Source: an uncultured archaeon (GTDB lineage Archaea > Asgardarchaeota > Thorarchaeia > Thorarchaeales > CAZPUN01). Taken from it: a stretch of 32,000 nt of DNA. A model generated the notes under the pieces. It was not told where the DNA came from and made no database searches. It saw only the letters and a list, made by a program, of their open reading frames with translations. Positions within the stretch are counted from its first letter, which is position 1. Every line of letters starts with the position of its first letter. The position numbers and the translations under genes were made by a program. Location: positions 60,001-92,000 of the forward strand of contig CAZPUN010000023.1 in NCBI GenBank assembly GCA_964589775.1. Direction: 5' to 3'. Positions 6,106-14,677 of the stretch are shown here, one piece after another.

Positions 6106-6124
6106 GGAAGTCTTGTACTTCCTC
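6104..6124. terminator. Hairpin GAGGAAGT-CTTGT-ACTTCCTC between convergent genes
   Basis: Perfect 8-bp inverted repeat filling the gap between the two stop codons. Confidence 0.5.
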
Positions 6125-7408
6125 TTATTTTGCGTAAATAGTTAATTTGCTGGCTTTATCAAAAACTAATATTTTTACATCCGGATTTTCCTTTATCCAT
6201 TTATCAATTACATCCTGTGGGTCTTCAGCTTTGTAAAGATGAATGCGCTCAACATCTTCTTTTGATAGTGTGGTATACATCCATATTTTATTGACTTTTT
6301 GAATTAACCGAGCAAATTTGTACGCTTTATGTGTATATAACTTATATTTCTGGGAAATATCTTCAATAACCTTTGGTATCGGTTGAGTAAGCTTATCATA
6401 AAATAGTTCTTTTGCTTCTTGATTTGGTGCGATACCGTCTCTACACTCTGCTAAGAATAATATTTCCCCATTTTCTTTTATTGCGTTTTTTGTCAATTCT
6501 AAAGCACGTTGGCTTGCGTATATGCTTAGATCAAATGGATAGCCACCTGGCGAAACTATAATCCTATCAACAGGTTCTACAGTAAAGCTTGCTATTTCAT
6601 CCAAAACATCAAATGCCTCTGTTGAGACTTGATTTATATCTCCGGCTTTGGCCCATATAATTTTCTTATTGCTTGTTATTACGCCTAGCACAAAGACTGG
6701 GGATTGGTTTATTATCAAATTCATTGCTTCAACCATGTCTTCTGCAACCGGATTGCTTCGTCGATGAATGTCTGAATGCATTGGGTGTCTTCCAAATGTA
6801 GCGTTATCATGAATTGCAAAACTATGATTATGCTCTATTGTTTCAAAAGCACAGATTCCTGGAAGAAAGTCCTTAACTGGAGCCGAATATCCTGCGAAAT
6901 AATGAGCTTTCATATCTGCTGCTACAACATATACATCGTGCCCTATGCACTTTTTATCTACCAATACTTTTGTACCAAAACTAGTAGTTCCTACTTCTTC
7001 AAAATCTCCATTTAGGCCGTCATGAATATATGCGTCGTAGTTTAAGTTATATTTCTTTGCAGATTGATTGATCATATTCAAAATCTCTATATTTTCTGGG
7101 TGTTCAACTTCATGGGTTCCTGTAGCTATTACAAATTGGATAAAATCCGCATTTTTTAGATTCGCAGATAGTGTTTCAATCAATTCTTTGTGTGGCTCTG
7201 ATCTTGTATGGTCTTCAATCATTACACATACGGATTTTCCTTTCGTTATTTCAAATAATTTTATTTCGCTATTATTCATTGCATCTTGTAAAACTTGTAA
7301 TGTGTTCTCTTTAATTTTGAGTGCTTTCGGAATGATTTTCCCTGCAAAATTCTTATCCGGGATTTCTAATTCGATAGGTGAATCACCATAATTTATCTTG
7401 ACTTTCAT
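6125..7408 (-). CDS. larA: LarA-family nickel-pincer racemase/epimerase (DUF2088)
   Basis: DHTR, ATGTH, HD, GTTSFGT, HYFAGYS..K..LPG, HNH, GGYPFD..Y, AECRDG motifs. Confidence 0.85.
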   Translation of the reverse strand: MKVKINYGDSPIELEIPDKNFAGKIIPKALKIKENTLQVLQDAMNNSEIKLFEITKGKSVCVMIEDHTRSEPHKELIETLSANLKNADFIQFVIATGTHEVEHPENIEILNMINQSAKKYNLNYDAYIHDGLNGDFEEVGTTSFGTKVLVDKKCIGHDVYVVAADMKAHYFAGYSAPVKDFLPGICAFETIEHNHSFAIHDNATFGRHPMHSDIHRRSNPVAEDMVEAMNLIINQSPVFVLGVITSNKKIIWAKAGDINQVSTEAFDVLDEIASFTVEPVDRIIVSPGGYPFDLSIYASQRALELTKNAIKENGEILFLAECRDGIAPNQEAKELFYDKLTQPIPKVIEDISQKYKLYTHKAYKFARLIQKVNKIWMYTTLSKEDVERIHLYKAEDPQDVIDKWIKENPDVKILVFDKASKLTIYAK

Positions 7409-7506
7409 TACAAGTCGCCTTTTTCTATTCTTCTTCTTATGTGAATAATTAATTTTAATAACTAATCCATTATTGCATTTAAATAAAAATATATTTGGTG
7501 GTATAT

Positions 7507-7785
7507 ATGTCTCAGTCTAATCGTAAATATGAAAATTCATTTCGTTATATTGGCTTGGGAACTGAAATTCCCTGTATGGTAATCGTAGGCGTATTTGTTG
7601 GTAATTTATTAGGTCAACAGTTTGGCGGATTTTGGAGTACATGGGGCGTTATACTTGGTGCAATATTTGGATTTTTGTTGGGTGTATTTAATATATACCA
7701 AATTATAAATCAAGAAGAAAAGGAGCGAAATATGCGAAAACTTCAGACTATTCAGAAAAAAGAACAAGAAGCTGAAAGTGACTAA
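7507..7785 (+). CDS. AtpZ/AtpI-like (ATPase_gene1) two-TM protein
   Basis: GLGTEIPCMVIVGVFVGNLLG..FG...WGVILGAIFGFLLGVFNIY pattern with a charged tail. ATG 7507 follows GGTGGT. Confidence 0.6.
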   Translation: MSQSNRKYENSFRYIGLGTEIPCMVIVGVFVGNLLGQQFGGFWSTWGVILGAIFGFLLGVFNIYQIINQEEKERNMRKLQTIQKKEQEAESD

Positions 7786-7790
7786 TCTAA

Positions 7791-8366
7791 TTATTTTTCT
7801 ACGCTATCAGCTTCTTCTTGTAGTATCTCTTCAACAATTCTACTAGCAGTTCTGCCAACGATTGCTATTACAATTTGGATCAATACACTTACATAAAGAA
7901 TTCCAAATCCTAGAAACATAAATGTTAATGACAATGAACCTGCAGTAATTGCTATGATGAAATTCTTGTAAATAATATAATAGCTGTAAATTGCCGCAGC
8001 GAACATAAAGAATATTCCGCCACCGTATAAAGCTAAAACTGTTCTAACATTCTTACCGTTAATATCTACAATACCAATTCCTTTTCCAATAACAAAATTC
8101 TGGATTTTTGCGTGGAATCGCATGAATGCACCGATAGCCAATAAGAATATAAATAATGTTAAACCGCCACCAATTAAGAGTAGTAATATTGCAGTATCAA
8201 AATCGATTGCTGTAATAATTCCTGTAGTGTTTAGAATATATGATACTAATGAGCCCAATACTATGATTATTGAAAATATTTCTAATATGAATGTAATTGT
8301 TGTTGAGTTTTTAAAGACTCTTCCTAAATTAAATGGAATAATTTGAGCCTTTTTTTCTTCAGTCAT
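7791..8366 (-). CDS. Hypothetical 4-TM membrane protein
   Basis: Four hydrophobic segments. ATG at 8366 is preceded by GGTGA; the ORF track starts at GTG 8375. Confidence 0.7.
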   Translation of the reverse strand: MTEEKKAQIIPFNLGRVFKNSTTITFILEIFSIIIVLGSLVSYILNTTGIITAIDFDTAILLLLIGGGLTLFIFLLAIGAFMRFHAKIQNFVIGKGIGIVDINGKNVRTVLALYGGGIFFMFAAAIYSYYIIYKNFIIAITAGSLSLTFMFLGFGILYVSVLIQIVIAIVGRTASRIVEEILQEEADSVEK

Positions 8367-8472
8367 TTCAATCACCCATTTACATATTATGATTTTAATT
8401 GCTTATTACATTTTGTTATTACAATATGCTTAAATTGGATTTAATAATTTCTTTCAGTGGAGAGTTCAGATT

Positions 8473-9558
8473 ATGAAAATAATGATTGTAATTGGGACCA
8501 GACCTGAAATTGTAAAAATGGCACCTATTATTGATTATGTAGAAAAAATAGGTATTGATTTTGTTGTTATTCATTCAGGGCAGCATTATAGTAACTTTAT
8601 GTCCGATGCATTTATTTCAGATCTCGAATTACCTCCTCCTGATGAAAATTTGGGCATTGGTTCTGGAACACAAGCCGAGCAGACTGCAAAAGGGCTTGTT
8701 GAATTTGAGAAATCTATTTTTAGAAATATGCCAGATGTGGTTCTTGTACAAGGCGATACAAATTCTGCTTTTGCTGCTGGTCTTGCAGGTGCAAAGATCC
8801 ACGATGTAAAGGTAGGTCACGTGGAAGCAGGTCTTCGTAGCTATGACCTTCGCATGCCGGAAGAATACAATCGCCGATTATTAGATCATTTAAGTGATTT
8901 CCTATTTGCTCCTACGCAAATGAATTATGAAATATTGATGCGTGAAAATGTTTTTGGAAAAGTATATGTGACTGGAAATACAGTTATTGATGCCTGTATT
9001 CGGCATTTACCTATTGCTGAGAAAAAATCCGACATATTAAGTAAGTTAAATATATCAGACTATGTTCTATTAACTCTTCACAGAGCCGAAAATGTTGATG
9101 ACCCGAAAACTTTGAAATCAATATTAGATGCGCTATTTGAATTAGATGAACAAATTCTCTTTCCTGCGCACCCTCGTACAGTTAATAGATTTTATGAATT
9201 TAATTTTATGGAGCGAATAAAGAAGTCGAATATACGCTTAATACAACCTGTATCATATCTTGATTTTCTCGTTTTAATGAAGAATTCAAAATATATTATT
9301 ACAGATTCTGGAGGTATTCAAGAGGAGGCTACTGCTCCCAACATTAGGAAAAGGGTCTTTGTTGTTCGTGATTCTACAGAACGCCAAGAAGCAGCTGAAG
9401 CTGGATTTGCAGTGGTGGTTGGGACACAAAAAGACAAAATTCTTGAGGAGATACGTACCACGCTTGAAAATCAACCTCCGCTACCTTCTAAGTCGCCATT
9501 TGGCGATGGAAGATCTGCCGAACGAATCATAGAATTTCTATTAAAACATTATGATTAA
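8473..9558 (+). CDS. wecB: UDP-N-acetylglucosamine 2-epimerase (non-hydrolysing)
   Basis: GTRPEIVK, GQHY, VQGDT, HVEAGLRS, MPEEYNR, GNTVID, LHRAEN, DSGGIQEEA, FGDG. Confidence 0.95.
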   Translation: MKIMIVIGTRPEIVKMAPIIDYVEKIGIDFVVIHSGQHYSNFMSDAFISDLELPPPDENLGIGSGTQAEQTAKGLVEFEKSIFRNMPDVVLVQGDTNSAFAAGLAGAKIHDVKVGHVEAGLRSYDLRMPEEYNRRLLDHLSDFLFAPTQMNYEILMRENVFGKVYVTGNTVIDACIRHLPIAEKKSDILSKLNISDYVLLTLHRAENVDDPKTLKSILDALFELDEQILFPAHPRTVNRFYEFNFMERIKKSNIRLIQPVSYLDFLVLMKNSKYIITDSGGIQEEATAPNIRKRVFVVRDSTERQEAAEAGFAVVVGTQKDKILEEIRTTLENQPPLPSKSPFGDGRSAERIIEFLLKHYD

Positions 9559-9640
9559 CATTAACATGTGGGTAATACTAATACTTTTCTCATATTTTTT
9601 TTCTATACTATTATGAGTCCACTAATCATTTTATGGAGGA

Positions 9641-11173
9641 TTGTATTTGAATTATAGTGTAAATAACGAAACATTGTGTGAGGTTTGTCATAGACGTTCA
9701 GCTACACATATTTGTAACGACTGTGGGCTCGTTTTCTGTGAGGATTGTATAAAAAAGACAATGTCACAGTTTGTATTTTGCGCCGATTGCGGTTCGGAGG
9801 TTATTGGTAAGAAAGAAACAAAGGACGGTCCGGTTTATTATTGTCTTGAATGTGGCTCACAAAATCTTAAAGCTGGGCGTCGTATTAATGCAACATGTCC
9901 TAAATGTGGTTCCAAAAATATTTCTACAATTGATTCAATAAAAAGTGATTTATCTAATCGAATTAAAGAAGAAATTTATCAACTCCGCTATGGTGGAAAA
10001 TTATTAGTGGACTTGGCTAAAAAAATCAATGCTACTAAACGAAATCTTGTATCTTTGAGAATGTCTAATTTTGTTGAAAATCGAGAATTAGAGGATATCT
10101 TAAATAAAATTTATGCAGCATGGTCTGCATTAAAAGTTCAAATAGAATCGCAAACAAAATCCGCCGCAAAAGAAATTATTGGACTTACTAAAGGACGGCT
10201 TGATTCTGAAAAGTGGACTCCATCTGATTTTCATACACTTGAAGGTATTCTCTCTAGGATCGAAATTGTTATTGATAATTATCTCGAAACTGTAAACAGC
10301 AATTCAGAACAAATTAAAAAAGATCTAGACCTGCTAATTGAAAAAATAAAAGAATTAGAATCCTTCAGATTGAAGTTTGATGCGTTTTGGAGACATTGTA
10401 GATTAAATCTAAATGAATTTCCTGTTGCTGCTGTGGATGACTTAACTCTTACAGATAGCTCATTTCTTAAAGTCGACAAATGTGATGGTATATTATATTT
10501 CACAAATCAACGAATATTGTTTATTGCAATTAAGGGATTATTCTCCAAGAAAGAAACTATAGAATTTGAAATTGAATTAAAAGAAATTGCAGGTGTTCAA
10601 ATATCTGGTCGGTTAAGAAAACGTATAGATCTAATTACTCGTCAAGGAACAATTCAATTTATTTATTTTGATGATATCGATAGTGTTCTTGAATCTTATA
10701 TTTCTCGTGCAAAAGAATTCAATAGAAATGCTCAATTGAATCTTGATTATATCCGACAATTAGATAAGAGAAACATTGAAACCTCACAAATTATGGATGC
10801 GGTGGAAAAAATATTGAAAATCATCCTTAAAGCAGGATATCATCCTGCAATTTCGAACAAAGGTTTTCATAATTTCGAGCGTTCGCAAATCTCTCCTGCA
10901 CTTAACATTCCGATAGTAACAGAAGCCCCTCCTCGATCCGTACCCGTAGCAAATACTGATATTATTGTTGAGAAGCGCATACGTGATCGAATAAATCAAC
11001 TTGAACAGAATAAATTTTCAATTGAGCAGATGACTCAAGAATTAAAAGAAATGCATAGGGGCGGTCAAATCTCAATTGAGCAATTTACAAAGCAATATAT
11101 GGCACTAATGAAAGAGCTATACGTTATTAATAGTGAATTAGAAAAAATAAGGAATTTTGCAGGTAATATCTAA
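9641..11173 (+). CDS. Multidomain protein: six CxxC Zn-finger region, coiled coil, PH-like (GRAM/GLUE) domain, Pro-rich linker, steadiness-box/SHOCT-like C-terminus
   Basis: CEVC, CNDC, CEDC, CADC, CLEC, CPKC; DGILYFTNQRILF; C-terminal SIEQMTQELKEMHRGGQISIEQFTKQYMALMKELY. TTG start after GGAGGA. Confidence 0.7.
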   Translation: MYLNYSVNNETLCEVCHRRSATHICNDCGLVFCEDCIKKTMSQFVFCADCGSEVIGKKETKDGPVYYCLECGSQNLKAGRRINATCPKCGSKNISTIDSIKSDLSNRIKEEIYQLRYGGKLLVDLAKKINATKRNLVSLRMSNFVENRELEDILNKIYAAWSALKVQIESQTKSAAKEIIGLTKGRLDSEKWTPSDFHTLEGILSRIEIVIDNYLETVNSNSEQIKKDLDLLIEKIKELESFRLKFDAFWRHCRLNLNEFPVAAVDDLTLTDSSFLKVDKCDGILYFTNQRILFIAIKGLFSKKETIEFEIELKEIAGVQISGRLRKRIDLITRQGTIQFIYFDDIDSVLESYISRAKEFNRNAQLNLDYIRQLDKRNIETSQIMDAVEKILKIILKAGYHPAISNKGFHNFERSQISPALNIPIVTEAPPRSVPVANTDIIVEKRIRDRINQLEQNKFSIEQMTQELKEMHRGGQISIEQFTKQYMALMKELYVINSELEKIRNFAGNI

Positions 11174-11778
11174 GATTTTTCTTTCTCTTTCTCTATTTCA
11201 CGTCTTAGTAATTCTAATTCATCCAATACTTCTTCATCAGACTCTTTTGATGTTTCTTTCTTGGGTATTTCTGGGAATTCCTTCTCTAGTGCAACTTCCA
11301 TGCTTAATCTTTCTAATTCATCATCAACGCTCAATTCATCAATACCTGAATCTATGCTCTCCGCCGATATATCGCCCGCCATTTCTATTGTGCTCATATG
11401 GTCTGAAATATCACTCATTGTAGCTCCAATTTTCTCGGGGCTTACTTCGGCGGCTGTTTCTCTTAAGAGTGATTCGGCTTCTTTGAGTGTATCGGTTTGA
11501 ACTTTCAAATCTTCACCTATTTCAATGTGAGTACTTATAGCTTCTAGGTTTGACAGCATTCCATCATATTTTTTGGCTTGACGTATATAGTACTTACTTC
11601 TTAACAGTAGACTTCGAGCCTTATCTTTCTGACCATGAATTAAAGCATCTTTTGCTTTTCGTCTTAGTTCTTCTGCCTTATTTTCAAAGTTTCTTTTTCT
11701 TGCCTTTAATATTGTAATCGTTCGTCTTATTTTCATTTCTTTTGCTTGTTTGTCCTTTTTCTTTTTGAAAAATGGCAT
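11170..11778 (-). CDS. ESCRT-III subunit, Snf7 (Vps20/32/60)-like class
   Basis: Basic N-half and acidic C-half; GQKDKARSLLLRSKYYIRQAKKYDGMLSNLE resembles Snf7 helix 2; VDDELERL; FPEIP (MIM2-like); N-terminal PFFKKKK. Confidence 0.85.
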   Translation of the reverse strand: MPFFKKKKDKQAKEMKIRRTITILKARKRNFENKAEELRRKAKDALIHGQKDKARSLLLRSKYYIRQAKKYDGMLSNLEAISTHIEIGEDLKVQTDTLKEAESLLRETAAEVSPEKIGATMSDISDHMSTIEMAGDISAESIDSGIDELSVDDELERLSMEVALEKEFPEIPKKETSKESDEEVLDELELLRREIEKEKEKS

Positions 11779-11796: not shown

Positions 11797-12393
11797 TTAT
11801 CCCGTGCCTAATTTCTTTTCGAGTTCTTTTACCTCTTTTTCTAAACTGTCTTCAGCTGATATTTCAACAGGCTCGCCCTTAGCTGCTGCAGTTATTTCTT
11901 TCAATGCGGCATCTAATTCATCAGGTGAAACTTCTGGTGATGATGCTTCAATTGCGGAACCTGATATTTCTCCCTCAATTTCAAATTCGCGGATTTTTCG
12001 TGCGATCATATCTGCATTTTTCGCGATTTCCTCAGCATCAATGGCTGCGCTTATACCATCAAGAGTGCCTGCAACTTCTGCTAAAACTGCATTCATTCTT
12101 CCTGTCATTTGAGCACGTTTTATTTGTGCAATTAATTTGACAATATGTAACCGATATCTATCTGCCATAAGTGCGGATTTTCTGAATTTTACCATTTCTG
12201 CTGCATACATTCGTGCAGCTTCATCCTTGCCTTGCTTCTTGTATTTTATCGCTTGCATTCTGGTCTGGCGTTCTTCCCGTTCGAGCATTCTTACTTGAAA
12301 TTTCAGACTGTTTGCAAGGCTTTGTAATCGGTAAATTAAATCGTCTACATTATCTTTCTTGAACCATCTCATGAATTTTTTTAGGGTTCCCAA
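11797..12393 (-). CDS. ESCRT-III subunit, Vps2/24/46-like class
   Basis: GKDEAARMYAAEMVKFRK resembles CHMP1/2/3 helix 2; N-terminal amphipathic LKKFMRWFKK; C-terminal MIM1-like DSLEKEVKELEKKL. TTG start. Confidence 0.85.
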   Translation of the reverse strand: MGTLKKFMRWFKKDNVDDLIYRLQSLANSLKFQVRMLEREERQTRMQAIKYKKQGKDEAARMYAAEMVKFRKSALMADRYRLHIVKLIAQIKRAQMTGRMNAVLAEVAGTLDGISAAIDAEEIAKNADMIARKIREFEIEGEISGSAIEASSPEVSPDELDAALKEITAAAKGEPVEISAEDSLEKEVKELEKKLGTG

Positions 12394-12533
12394 TATTGCT
12401 CCGTCCCATTAGTTCTTATTAACTATATATACGATATTGCCTAAATAATTCTTTGGTATCATTGCATAGTCTTTAGAATATACTTTATTAATATAATTTG
12501 ATATATATCTATATAGTCCGAGGTGAATTCTTT

Positions 12534-13013
12534 ATGTTAAGCAAAATTGGTCCGCTAATTGGTCTAGCAATAGCATTCGTATTGGTCTGGGCATTAATGG
12601 CATATGCGCCATTACCTGCAAGTTATCTTGATCCAAGTATAGTGAATCATTTCAATACAGCTCCAGATCTTGAAAGAAAGCTCTTAGTCATAATCGATGA
12701 AGTGTTGTATCCGCCATCAGGTATTTCTACAGTAGCCATGCTATCTTGGGGTGCTGGTGGTTTAGTAACCGGATTAGTAACCCAGGGACCCGGACGTGGT
12801 CTAATGGCTGCAATCATGTCTGTTATTCTTGGTGTTGTTTTAGTGTGGTTGTTTTATGTAGCTCTTTTTGGTTCTATTGATACTATCTTGAGTTCAGCAT
12901 CTTTGATTCAATTAGATAACTATTTTATGCATTCCATGTGGGGCGCAGTATCCTCTGGATTTGGTGGTTTACTTGGTGGCGCAATAAATCGTGAGAGCCT
13001 TGAATATGAATAA
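12534..13013 (+). CDS. Gly-rich small membrane protein (about 4 TM)
   Basis: GAGGLVTGLVTQGPGRG and GFGGLLGGA glycine-zipper helices. ATG 12534 follows GAGGTGA. Confidence 0.75.
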   Translation: MLSKIGPLIGLAIAFVLVWALMAYAPLPASYLDPSIVNHFNTAPDLERKLLVIIDEVLYPPSGISTVAMLSWGAGGLVTGLVTQGPGRGLMAAIMSVILGVVLVWLFYVALFGSIDTILSSASLIQLDNYFMHSMWGAVSSGFGGLLGGAINRESLEYE

Positions 13014-13021
13014 ATGGCTCT

Positions 13022-13627
13022 CTAATCTATAATTTTTTCATTATTTGTATAATTTCTCAATTTTCGACCACAAACAACACAGATCTCTGGATTTGATTTA
13101 TAAACCGCTCCACATTCGCATATTGTAATAATTTTTGGATGCTCTTTCTTTTCTAAGAATGCCTGGTGGGTCTCTCTAATTTTTTGTATTATAAAAGCTG
13201 ATACTATCCCAATGTTAAAAATAATTAACGTTACAAAAATGTCTTGAATCATAATTATATTTTTGGTAAATCTGTCTAATGAATTCCATGAATTTATATC
13301 TTGCAGTATTTTTATAGTAATAGAAATGAATGCGAAATATGCTCCTGATTTTGAAATAAATAATGCTGCATCTGAAATAGAACGACTTGATAATGCTGCA
13401 ATTAATCCGAATAATAAACTTGAAATTATTATAACAAAAACGCTTTGTAGATTATTAAATGAATAATTACCTATTTCGGTGACTTGTTGTATAATGTGTT
13501 TAATTGAATCTATATTCAAAAATATATTTCCTGTGTATAATGTACTTCCAATTAATGCGGCTACACTATTTACAAATATCGCATATATTATCGGCGTTAT
13601 TATGAATATTATTATACGTTTTTGCAC
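13022..13627 (-). CDS. Membrane protein with C-terminal Zn ribbon
   Basis: About 4 hydrophobic segments, then CECG-x8-CVVCG. Confidence 0.75.
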   Translation of the reverse strand: MQKRIIIFIITPIIYAIFVNSVAALIGSTLYTGNIFLNIDSIKHIIQQVTEIGNYSFNNLQSVFVIIISSLLFGLIAALSSRSISDAALFISKSGAYFAFISITIKILQDINSWNSLDRFTKNIIMIQDIFVTLIIFNIGIVSAFIIQKIRETHQAFLEKKEHPKIITICECGAVYKSNPEICVVCGRKLRNYTNNEKIID

Positions 13628-13729
13628 TTATTGTCACCAGAACTATTCTATACAAGTCAAGTTTCTGCGTATAAACTTAAAAAAGATGTTTATATAGGTG
13701 TATTCAGAAAAAATCATATGTAAATATTT

Positions 13730-14677
13730 ATGGGGATTGACACATTGGCAGAAAAGAAACAGGACGAATTAAAACTACGTACATACAAAGTATCTGTTGC
13801 AGGTCTTGTTATACTTTCAATAATCTTATCGTTAGTTACGATATACTTTTGGAATCCAACACCTGAAACTATAACTTCTATGCTATTCATTTTAATAGTT
13901 CTTCATAGTATTTTTGCTGTTGGGTTTGTTGTTGCATATGTTGAAGTTTCTGAGCATCCCGCGGAAAAGCGTTCTATCGATCGTCTTATGAATTTATATA
14001 CACAGCTTCGTGATGCTTATGAGGCTGCTGAACCGGATCTTGATTTTCTATCCTCACGATTTTACAATCTTCTCAACTATCTTATGAATATCTATACTAA
14101 GGAACCCGATCCTGCAAAGAGAGATCGTGCTTTTAATATTACTAATATTGTTAAAAGTATCAATGAACCTCTGGCAGCATCACGTGACTTTCTTACTAAT
14201 AATGAAACCATATATGATATTATCACAAATTTGGATGATATGACTGATATTCCCCTAGACAAAATTAAAGCTGCAATTGATGGTGCTAAGAACGTGGGCG
14301 AATCCGTTTTAAAAGCAATTCCCCCTCGAGCGCGTTCAAGAAATGCACTTTTTCTAAAGAAAAATGCTTCTGATGCAGTATCAACGTCTCATCAATTAGA
14401 GGATCTATTGAATCCTAATATTATTAAGCTTGATCGTGTTTTGCGTCAATTCCGTAATGAAGCAGAACTGATTAGTAAAGAAATGCCGTTATTCACAAAG
14501 AAGAATTTAGAGAATGCTTCTCTAATAAGCTTAATTTCATTAATTCCCTCTTTAAATGCAATATTCTTTATAGAAGCAACAAAATTCCATGTCTTACTTG
14601 AACTTATGTTTGTTAACTTTGCTTTGTTCTTTACAATATATGGTGTCTTTAGAAAAGTCAAAAAGGATGAGGAGTAA
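13730..14677 (+). CDS. Hypothetical membrane protein (2 TM + large helical loop + 2 TM)
   Basis: 315-aa ORF; hydropathy read by eye. Confidence 0.75.
   Translation: MGIDTLAEKKQDELKLRTYKVSVAGLVILSIILSLVTIYFWNPTPETITSMLFILIVLHSIFAVGFVVAYVEVSEHPAEKRSIDRLMNLYTQLRDAYEAAEPDLDFLSSRFYNLLNYLMNIYTKEPDPAKRDRAFNITNIVKSINEPLAASRDFLTNNETIYDIITNLDDMTDIPLDKIKAAIDGAKNVGESVLKAIPPRARSRNALFLKKNASDAVSTSHQLEDLLNPNIIKLDRVLRQFRNEAELISKEMPLFTKKNLENASLISLISLIPSLNAIFFIEATKFHVLLELMFVNFALFFTIYGVFRKVKKDEE

Follow-up and report, generated by a model that had tools for sequence, protein, structure and literature searches.

This locus raises the question of whether the protein encoded at positions 9641-11173 of the window (the whole 32,000-nucleotide stretch of DNA that was analysed) has a novel architecture, as an earlier note on the sequence had proposed, and what part it might play beside the ESCRT-III genes that adjoin it. 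We found that the domain combination exists but is not novel, having been published in 2024 under the name Znr_CC_PH_SB (cog.011556; PMC10936438). We put at about 0.7 the probability that the gene is an ortholog of this Asgard-specific family in a Thorarchaeota-related Asgard archaeon and that its product acts as a membrane-proximal ESCRT adaptor.

The open reading frame at 9641-11173 was present on the plus strand as previously described, with two TTG codons as possible starts. Because both the database protein (P0002) and a 75%-identical relative (P0003) begin with MNYSV, which corresponds to the TTG at 9647, and because GGAGG at 9635-9639 lies 7 nt upstream of this codon, a gene of 9647-11173 encoding 508 amino acids is more likely. 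No NCBIfam model was found for the window protein. The gene, its parts and the two adjoining genes are arranged as follows.

9647..11173, plus strand: Znr_CC_PH_SB gene, 508 aa; TTG start at 9647 preferred over TTG at 9641; stop codon TAA at 11171-11173.
9668..9928, plus strand: N-terminal zinc module, residues ~8-94; six CxxC pairs making up three four-cysteine sites.
9929..10387, plus strand: region of four long helices, residues 95-247, N-terminal to the PH domain; helices at 95-111, 114-139, 147-181 and 192-247.
10394..10738, plus strand: GRAM/GLUE-like PH domain, residues 250-364; motif GILYFTNQRILF and basic stretch GRLRKR.
10742..10891, plus strand: short segment C-terminal to the PH domain, residues 366-415; AF2 helices 366-374, 380-398 and 400-415.
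10892..10951, plus strand: disordered Pro-rich linker, residues 416-435; the one stretch besides the N-terminus with pLDDT below 50.
10955..11167, plus strand: C-terminal steadiness-box hairpin, residues 437-507; Vps23 / CdvA-hairpin type.
11170..11778, minus strand: first ESCRT-III gene, ESCRT-IIIB (Vps20/32/60 type); Pfam Snf7, E 2.3e-20; convergent.
11797..12393, minus strand: second ESCRT-III gene, CHMP1-like; Pfam Snf7, E 1.1e-8; co-directional with the ESCRT-IIIB gene.

Makarova et al. (2024, mBio 15:e00335-24; PMC10936438) described the Asgard family Znr_CC_PH_SB (asCOG cog.011556) as a likely component of Asgard ESCRT-I, with a domain order of three zinc modules, coiled coil, PH domain and C-terminal steadiness box (SB). 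The features of membership are present in the window protein, namely the zinc sites, the helical region, the PH domain, the SB, homology and Asgard-wide occurrence. BLASTP aligned the window protein with a counterpart at locus L070:8973-10961 (E 5e-21 over residues 1-409), the tail being aligned separately. The order of genes at that locus (L35Ae, the family gene, MetE and, on the opposite strand, Vps20) agrees gene for gene with that listed for Lokiarchaeum GC14_75 in Table S2 of PMC10936438; homology to a published member was judged through this counterpart, identified by gene order, and not through the published sequence itself.

A word-indexed search for homologues returned one relative alone, at 75% identity, and neither a conserved 7-10-mer in the family alignment nor a tblastn-confirmed related locus with the single protein was found. 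The family was revealed by an exhaustive profile search, which gave 62 representatives at E <= 1e-10 and 88 hits in all. The family profile also matched 384 of 400 genomes of the Asgard phylum at E <= 1e-5, organisms outside the phylum being covered by the exhaustive library search only. Many of these matches were full-length; those in several families were weak and probably partial. All named members were Asgard (Thor-, Jord-, Prometh- and Sigynarchaeal). The earlier note had taken a SHOCT tail and a bacterial bPH domain, together with homologues widespread in ESCRT-lacking organisms, as evidence that would speak against its own reading; the full-length relatives proved to be Asgard only.

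An AF2 model built from the single sequence was useless (pLDDT 46.8), which was remedied by use of a 54-sequence alignment (pLDDT 90.9, pTM 0.73). The roughly 160 helical residues read earlier from the sequence were recovered as the helices of residues 95-247, with pLDDT above 90 throughout, and these were modelled as an intramolecular bundle together with the PH domain. DH-PH proteins prevailed among the Foldseek matches to the full model, but their global superposition was poor (TM ~0.2) and a DH domain was rejected. Alignments over the helices plus PH domain (residues 89-359) were to DH-PH proteins and to a Chloroflexota cluster, which has the helix-plus-PH module in common with the window protein (TM 0.83/0.76). 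The DH-PH matches reflect this arrangement and not RhoGEF homology.

The motif reported at residue 282, DGILYFTNQRILF, lies within a beta-sandwich plus C-terminal helix, and the family consensus there is GxLxxTxKRLxF. VIA-align of the PH domain (residues 246-363) gave MTMR2 GRAM-PH at Z 12.7, Lam6 at Z 12.1 and EAP45 GLUE at Z 10.2, such that GRAM-PH domains outscored GLUE, and Foldseek matched the domain to the Vps36 PH domain 2cay. Among the 54 family members, Pfam assigned bPH_3 to 29, GRAM to 11 and Vps36_ESCRT-II to 6. Four of the six PDB profile matches were Vps36 chains, with marginal similarity (E 0.1-0.9), and bacterial clusters of bPH_3 plus SHOCT were found among the structural neighbours of this part. 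These results bear out the assignment of a GRAM/GLUE-like PH domain.

Pfam gave no match of note for the segment of residues 366-415. The Pro-rich stretch noted earlier falls within the disordered segment 416-435, a linker whose length is highly variable in the family (up to ~350 residues), with long low-complexity inserts in Lokiarchaeial members. The tail described from residue 460 lies within a hairpin of two helices (437-471 and 477-507). A profile of the family tail retrieved the yeast Vps23 core (E 2.2e-8), TSG101 (7.8e-4) and Vps37B (7.3e-3) from the PDB, and Pfam Vps23_core matched 16 of the 54 members and 7 of 10 isolated tails, one of these above the curated cut-off. SHOCT, the alternative offered for the tail, was rejected: it was found in 1 of the 10 isolated tails (E 0.04 over 19 residues), the window's tail was not matched, and this family was outside the 25 most frequent Pfam families over the 54 members. 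Helical hairpins are generic as a fold, and matches of the tail to CHMP4B and CHMP2A/3 hairpins were treated as generic helical-hairpin similarity. On the profile evidence, the tail is a Vps23-type steadiness box.

In the window, the stop codons of the Znr_CC_PH_SB gene and the ESCRT-IIIB gene overlap. The best PDB matches of the ESCRT-IIIB protein were 9fn1, which is a Vps20/32/60-like protein of Asgard origin (E 3.2e-11), and 9ftl, which is Heimdall ESCRT-IIIB. CHMP1B and CHMP1A (E 2.4e-4 and weaker) were the sole PDB matches of the second ESCRT-III protein, which we tentatively assign to the Vps2/24/46 type. Of 20 genomes sampled, 12 had a convergent Snf7 gene at <=150 bp and 16 had one at <=4 kb, the linkage recurring in 10 GTDB families; it was missing in the other four genomes, which included three families with weaker matches to the family gene. 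The tail-to-tail arrangement was identical in the 75%-identical relative. The linkage is convergent and not operonic. Within the window's genome, the family tail profile matched four other ORFs, and Vps22 carries an N-terminal SB-like segment and adjoins Vps25 and Vps4. The Vps4 locus is without an ESCRT-III gene, and the EAP30 proteins are encoded elsewhere.

What is known of the published family is extended modestly by the matches, some of them weak, of its profile to 384 of 400 Asgard genomes, by the deeply conserved convergent pairing with an ESCRT-IIIB gene, by the spacing of zinc sites one and two, which resembles that of a B-box and is described below, and, beyond the family itself, by the similar helix-plus-PH module in Chloroflexota proteins.

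Most likely, Znr_CC_PH_SB would sit on the membrane as an adaptor, entering steadiness-box assemblies and feeding ESCRT-III. The PH domain, in which basic residues are conserved, may anchor the protein to the membrane on its cytoplasmic side or may bind ubiquitin as GLUE does, and the zinc module may recognise another protein, which could be ubiquitin or ubiquitinated cargo. Phosphoinositides, which are often bound by GLUE and GRAM domains, are not known to occur in archaeal membranes, and this counts against the lipid-binding proposal. The tethered SB hairpin would bundle with the SB hairpins of SB-Vps22 and of Vps23/Vps28-like Asgard ESCRT proteins. The protein would thus be a membrane-proximal subunit of an early, ESCRT-I/II-like complex whose signal is passed to Vps25 and ESCRT-IIIB, and it could provide in trans what the PH domain and zinc fingers of Vps36 do in cis in eukaryotes.

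We consider it unlikely that the protein goes further and constitutes a self-sufficient early-ESCRT module that replaces eukaryotic ESCRT-0/I and Vps36, with the PH domain binding the membrane, a cross-brace finger binding or ligating ubiquitin, and the SB directly seeding a Vps20/32/60-type filament as an ancestral state. If this were true, the convergent pair with overlapping stops would represent coupled expression of recruiter and filament subunit, and the ancestral state would be the later source of the PH domain and zinc finger of Vps36 and of the SB of Vps23 in eukaryotes.

A direct recruiter resembling CdvA is likewise improbable. Such a protein would bind the membrane through its PH domain, where CdvA has a PRC barrel, polymerize through its hairpin and recruit ESCRT-III directly without ESCRT-I/II. 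Among Pfam families, the CdvA coiled-coil hairpin gave the best score with the isolated tail of the window protein (E 2.1e-4), and the tail superposed on the hairpin of the CdvA filament from S. islandicus (9s9g) with Z 10.5 and an rmsd of 0.7 A over 68 residues; structurally, the CdvA and CHMP4B (Z 10.1) hairpins match the tail as well as any SB. The family gene is found beside ESCRT-III genes across the phylum, as cdvA is beside cdvB, and a common ancestor of the SB and the CdvA hairpin has been argued (bioRxiv 10.1101/2023.07.25.550441; Fig. S4 of PMC10936438). However, the family tail profile favoured Vps23, with no CdvA chain listed, Pfam gave no PRC match, and the gene pair is convergent rather than co-directional. 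The C-terminal peptide of CdvA binds the winged-helix domain of CdvB. This domain is not known from Asgard ESCRT-III generally, and the ESCRT-III proteins of the window gave Snf7 alone in Pfam, with no sign of a winged-helix domain. Moreover, recruitment could be mediated by the full Vps22/Vps25/Vps4 set in the genome.

The zinc module bears on whether the protein might instead be a TRIM-like E3 ligase, a reading that we regard as very unlikely, in which a cross-brace RING/B-box would recruit an Asgard E2, the helices would dimerize like the TRIM coiled coil, and cargo or ESCRT subunits would be ubiquitinated at the membrane. The six CxxC pairs reported at residues ~13-89, in the numbering of the earlier note, are present, and they are not due to chance because all 12 cysteines are invariant across 48 aligned homologues. 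With the strand pattern read from the AF2 model, pairs 5-6 form a classic two-knuckle zinc ribbon and pairs 1-4 resemble B-box1 or RING; the spacing of the first two sites (C-x2-C-x8-C-x2-C-x4-C-x2-C-x10-C-x2-C) fits either of these. Pfam assigned zf-B_box to 19 of the 54 members (best 2.4e-5), ANCHR-like BBOX to 13, DZR to 9 and zf-C3HC4_3 to 6, and the zinc-module profile retrieved the RNF4 RING (5.5e-7) and the TRIM2 B-box (7.6e-5) from the PDB. One family member carries the NCBI name 'B-box zinc finger protein', and E1, E2 and RING-E3 cascades in Asgard archaea modify an SB. Against this, Cys-rich profiles draw pattern-driven matches, as seen from the LIM, PHD and ribosomal zinc ribbons in the same PDB list, and a whole-protein sequence search of the PDB returned weak matches only, driven by the Cys pattern. 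The window protein's own Pfam B-box/RING matches all fell below the curated cut-off, the family authors describe three zinc ribbons (PMC10936438), and AF2 bundles the helices with the PH domain of the same chain; the Cys pairs may share zinc in either a cross-brace or a sequential manner.

A bacterial-type protein with a generic bPH domain, a SHOCT oligomerization tail and a coincidental ESCRT neighbourhood would accord with bPH_3 as the commonest Pfam match of the PH domain, with the bPH_3 plus SHOCT clusters near it in structure and with the helix-plus-PH module of the Chloroflexota cluster, but on sequence evidence this reading appears in effect refuted by Pfam (SHOCT in 1 of 10 tails versus Vps23_core in 7 of 10, and not in the top 25 families), by the tail profile, which retrieves Vps23, TSG101 and Vps37B, and by the recurrent ESCRT-III linkage, and the named full-length homologues are all Asgard.

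Asgard ESCRT proteins inform on the origin of eukaryotic membrane trafficking, and a single Znr_CC_PH_SB chain unites modules that in eukaryotes are split between Vps36 (PH, zinc finger) and Vps23 (steadiness box). With profile matches in almost every Asgard genome searched and a function that is predicted only, the family is a reasonable target for study.

Among known systems, TRIM/RBCC and B-box proteins such as ANCHR/ZFYVE19 share with the window protein a Cys-rich B-box/RING-like finger followed by ~150 helical residues. In the window protein, however, the ligands are all Cys, a third, zinc-ribbon site follows, and a PH domain and SB replace the PRY-SPRY or similar C-terminus of TRIM proteins. 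Crenarchaeal CdvA is similarly a candidate membrane-binding recruiter near ESCRT-III genes and has a comparable hairpin (Pfam CdvA E 2.1e-4; 9s9g Z 10.5), whereas its N-terminal PRC barrel and C-terminal CdvB-binding peptide are absent here, as judged from Pfam and the model, and the window genes are convergent and do not form one operon.

Yeast Vps36 has a GLUE domain with NZF zinc fingers, and tandem winged-helix (EAP30) domains form the ESCRT-II core and define Vps36. Like Vps36/EAP45, the window protein combines a GRAM-like PH domain and zinc fingers in one ESCRT-linked chain, with structural matches to EAP45 GLUE (Z 10.2) and to the Vps36 PH domain 2cay. In contrast to Vps36, its zinc fingers are N-terminal and not within the PH domain, and it has an ESCRT-I-type SB in place of EAP30 domains; Pfam gave no EAP30 match in the window protein even at E <= 1, and the model after the PH domain consists of helices and the hairpin. 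With Vps23/TSG101 it shares a C-terminal steadiness-box hairpin after helices (tail profile E 2.2e-8 for Vps23 and 7.8e-4 for TSG101). The UEV of Vps23/TSG101 and of Asgard UEV-Vps23 is replaced by the zinc module, which makes up the N-terminus, and the PH domain (no Pfam match to UEV or UQ_con in the window protein), and in the model the helices that precede the PH domain bundle within the chain and do not form an ESCRT-I stalk. Of the earlier proposal that a TRIM-like N-terminus is fused to Vps36-like and Vps23-like modules, the PH and SB modules thus stand, while the TRIM-like matches are sub-threshold and driven by the Cys pattern; because the window protein is without EAP30 and without UEV, it shares modules with Vps36 and Vps23 and is not a fusion of them.

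The closest counterpart is Asgard Znr_CC_PH_SB itself. The window protein is a short form (508 aa), whereas a long low-complexity linker ahead of the SB brings Lokiarchaeial members to 620-740 aa or more, and at the window both the ESCRT-IIIB gene, with its overlapping stop codon, and a second ESCRT-III gene adjoin. The order of the parts and the restriction to Asgard archaea are the same, as is the Vps20-type ESCRT-III neighbour found in Lokiarchaeum GC14_75, with homology to the counterpart identified there by gene order (E 5e-21).

The TTG-started open reading frame at 9641-11173 (+) comprises 510 codons. A further TTG is present at 9647, with GGAGG upstream at a 7-nt spacing, and both the database copy of the protein (P0002, 508 aa) and its sole close relative (P0003, 75% identity) start with MNYSV, which corresponds to TTG 9647. 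We therefore took 9647-11173 as the gene; the frame described in the earlier note exists, with the preferred start moved to 9647.

Makarova et al. (PMC10936438) named the family Znr_CC_PH_SB (asCOG cog.011556), judged it likely ancestral in Asgardarchaeota and a likely ESCRT-I component, and expected it to associate with membranes via its PH domain. An earlier preprint had listed cog.011556 as a 'Steadiness/Vps23 box' group (bioRxiv 10.1101/2023.07.25.550441). In Table S2 of the former study, the Lokiarchaeum GC14_75 member lies between the L35Ae and MetE genes, and a Vps20-family ESCRT-III gene follows shortly after them on the other strand (PMC10936438). We found a locus (L070) with the same gene order and sizes as this entry, and Pfam confirmed L35Ae, Meth_synt_2 and Snf7 there. 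The window protein aligned with the L070 family protein over residues 1-409 (E 5e-21), and the two tails aligned separately. Because L070 reproduces the GC14_75 locus, this alignment makes the window protein an ordinary short-linker member of the family. Its membership in Znr_CC_PH_SB, with the published counterpart identified via gene order, is thus nearly certain. The earlier note had named the modules correctly, but its claim of a novel architecture was wrong, as the family was published in 2024; Znr_CC_PH_SB is already known, and roles have been predicted for it.

An exhaustive profile search covering 1.84 billion representatives gave 88 matches, 62 of them at E <= 1e-10. The family profile matched 384 of 400 same-phylum genomes at E <= 1e-5, including 87 of the 90 high-quality ones. 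Many of these matches were full-length (E 1e-70 to 1e-167), and several families had weak, probably partial matches only (about 1e-6 to 1e-11). All named cluster members were Asgard (Thorarchaeota, Jordarchaeales, Promethearchaeota and Sigynarchaeum), annotated as 'hypothetical', 'PH domain-containing' or 'B-box zinc finger protein'; the nearest named relative beyond the genus was a Thorarchaeota protein, encoded in a genome that belongs to the same order. Members were about 520-530 aa long in the window's order and 620-740 aa or more in Lokiarchaeial genomes, owing to a long low-complexity linker before the steadiness box (SB).

AlphaFold2 was uninformative from the single sequence, whereas a 54-sequence family alignment gave a confident model (mean pLDDT 90.9, pTM 0.73). 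All of the sequence features in the earlier note were found in this model and in an alignment of 48 homologues. The model contains:

Residues 21-94, beta-hairpin zinc knuckles
Residues 95-247, four long helices
Residues 259-356, beta-sandwich and C-terminal helix
Onward to residue 415, shorter helices
Residues 416-435, Pro-rich segment, the sole disordered stretch
Residues 437-471 and 477-507, C-terminal two-helix hairpin

The tail had been read as steadiness-box-like, and this reading held. A tail profile built from 52 sequences matched the yeast Vps23 C-terminal core in the PDB over nearly its entire length (E 2.2e-8), followed by TSG101 (7.8e-4) and Vps37B (7.3e-3). Vps23_core matched seven of ten isolated tails, one above the Pfam cut-off. 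The window's own tail scored best with a CdvA hairpin model (E 2.1e-4), and it superposed on the filament hairpin of S. islandicus CdvA at 0.7 A. This likeness agrees with the common origin argued for steadiness boxes and the CdvA hairpin (bioRxiv 10.1101/2023.07.25.550441). That the protein is instead a CdvA-like direct recruiter of ESCRT-III seems unlikely, though it is the best of the alternatives. The SB profile also matched two stretches of PDB 8whn, the OST1/ribophorin I cytoplasmic domain of Promethearchaeum syntrophicum (E 3.6e-5), which superposed on the modeled hairpin (Z 10.8, rmsd 1.6). These matches suggest that a subunit of an Asgard oligosaccharyltransferase bears SB-like hairpins.

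All 12 Cys residues of the six CxxC pairs were invariant among the 48 homologues, compared with a mean column identity of 36%, indicating that the pairs are no chance pattern. Pairs 5 and 6 lie in the turns of consecutive beta-hairpins, as in a classic zinc ribbon according to the model. The first four have B-box1-like spacing (C-x2-C-x8-C-x2-C-x4-C-x2-C-x10-C-x2-C). The B-box and RING matches of these four pairs, while recurrent, stayed below threshold; a TRIM-like E3 ligase is unlikely, somewhat less probable than a CdvA-like recruiter. Finger topology, cross-brace or sequential ligation, is a point of remaining interest in the family.

In an exhaustive structural comparison, residues 246-363 were closest to the MTMR2 GRAM-PH domain (Z 12.7, rmsd 2.9, 108 aligned) and next to the GRAM-type PH domain of Lam6 (Z 12.1); further PH/PTB matches included the EAP45 GLUE domain (Z 10.2). 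The yeast Vps36 PH domain was among the Foldseek matches of the whole model. Pfam matches among 54 family members were to bPH_3 (29), GRAM (11) and Vps36_ESCRT-II (6). A PH-only profile matched no more than six PDB sequences, of which four were Vps36/EAP45 chains, and every E-value was weak. Together, the structural and Pfam matches uphold a GRAM/GLUE-like PH domain, against which the helical bundle packs in the model. Basic positions are conserved in the motifs TxKRL and GRxxK (here R289, R322 and K325). SHOCT, the earlier note's main alternative for the tail, matched one of the ten isolated tails (E 0.04, 19 residues) and was ruled out given the Vps23 and Vps23_core matches; an unrelated bPH-SHOCT-type protein is in effect refuted.

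A cluster of Chloroflexota proteins 295 aa long (ESM Atlas) has the whole four-helix-plus-PH module, P0002 residues 96-365 (9932-10741); over 255 residues, the TM was 0.83 by query and 0.76 by target, with a feature score of 0.89. GRAM and Vps36_ESCRT-II Pfam matches were present in another, related cluster from Chloroflexota. These proteins were not detected by sequence in the HMM search, and the likeness may stem from common descent, from gene transfer or from contigs binned in error.

The 3' end of the gene meets an ESCRT-III gene:

11171-11173 (+), TAA stop codon of the Znr_CC_PH_SB gene, overlapping the convergent gene's stop codon at 11170-11172 (-)
11170-11778 (-), convergent Snf7-family gene, closest to Asgard Vps20/32/60-like ESCRT-IIIB proteins of known structure (9fn1, E 3.2e-11)
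11797-12393, second ESCRT-III gene, weakly closest to CHMP1

The P0003 locus has an identical arrangement. We compared open reading frames in a stretch of about 20 kb surrounding the family gene with an ESCRT-III profile in 20 genomes from 13 GTDB families. A convergent ESCRT-III gene lay no more than 150 bp from the 3' end of the family gene in 12 genomes and no more than 4 kb from it in 16, and the linked genomes covered 10 families. None was found within 4 kb in the other four, which included three weak-match families. Given about three Snf7 genes in each genome, this proximity exceeds chance expectation, although related genomes are non-independent samples. A conserved pair that is convergent rather than co-directional is unusual. 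The pairing with ESCRT-IIIB, which the main text of Makarova et al. 2024 (PMC10936438) does not discuss, is, like the finger topology, a point of interest beyond the published family. Beyond the ESCRT-III pair, 12498-14677 encodes three predicted membrane proteins without a family match, one of which (13022-13627, -) has a zinc-ribbon-like motif, CxxC...CxxC, at its end. On the P0003 contig, two open reading frames flank the pair with position and strand as in the window, matched by location only; the contig ends before the third.

The canonical ESCRT core of this genome lies on contig 64 (26000-40000, about 6107-8783 of the fetched locus L050), where SB-Vps22 (265 aa; EAP30, VPS28 and Vps23_core matches) faces Vps25 (224 aa) and Vps4 (401 aa). 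Vps4 has no neighboring ESCRT-III gene at this locus; the genome's ESCRT-III genes are the two in the window and one on contig 20. Candidate SB partners are encoded by four other open reading frames of the genome that the tail profile matched. Directly upstream of SB-Vps22, a 239-aa frame (L050:5282-6001, -) with a weak bPH_3 match (E 0.04) may encode a second PH-type protein. A second trafficking-like cluster (contig 21, 12000-26000) encodes a SNAP-like protein, a 290-aa Arf/Roc-type small GTPase, a 266-aa protein whose C-terminal hairpin is of the CdvA/SB type and whose N-terminus is weakly syntaxin-like, a winged-helix S25 protein, a 256-aa protein that matched an ANCHR-like B-box, and an 805-aa protein that has an EAP30 domain at its end. 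Outside the window, a 459-aa protein (contig 23, 133380-134759; L052:2380-3759, +) matched the IFT52 GIFT domain (E 1.7e-24) and DUF4350, and its C-terminal part matched the SB profile (E 4.2e-6) and, weakly, Vps23_core (E 0.0098), a predicted GIFT-plus-SB-like combination.

From the domains and gene linkage, we favor a membrane-proximal early ESCRT adaptor, with a probability of about 0.5-0.6 for the mechanism as a whole. The PH domain, with its conserved basic positions, would keep the protein at the membrane or else bind ubiquitin, the zinc module would serve to bind ubiquitin or some other partner, and the tethered SB hairpin would bundle with those of SB-Vps22 and Vps23/Vps28-like proteins, placing the protein as an early subunit upstream of Vps25 and ESCRT-IIIB. 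Functions that lie in cis in Vps36 would be supplied in trans by the window protein.
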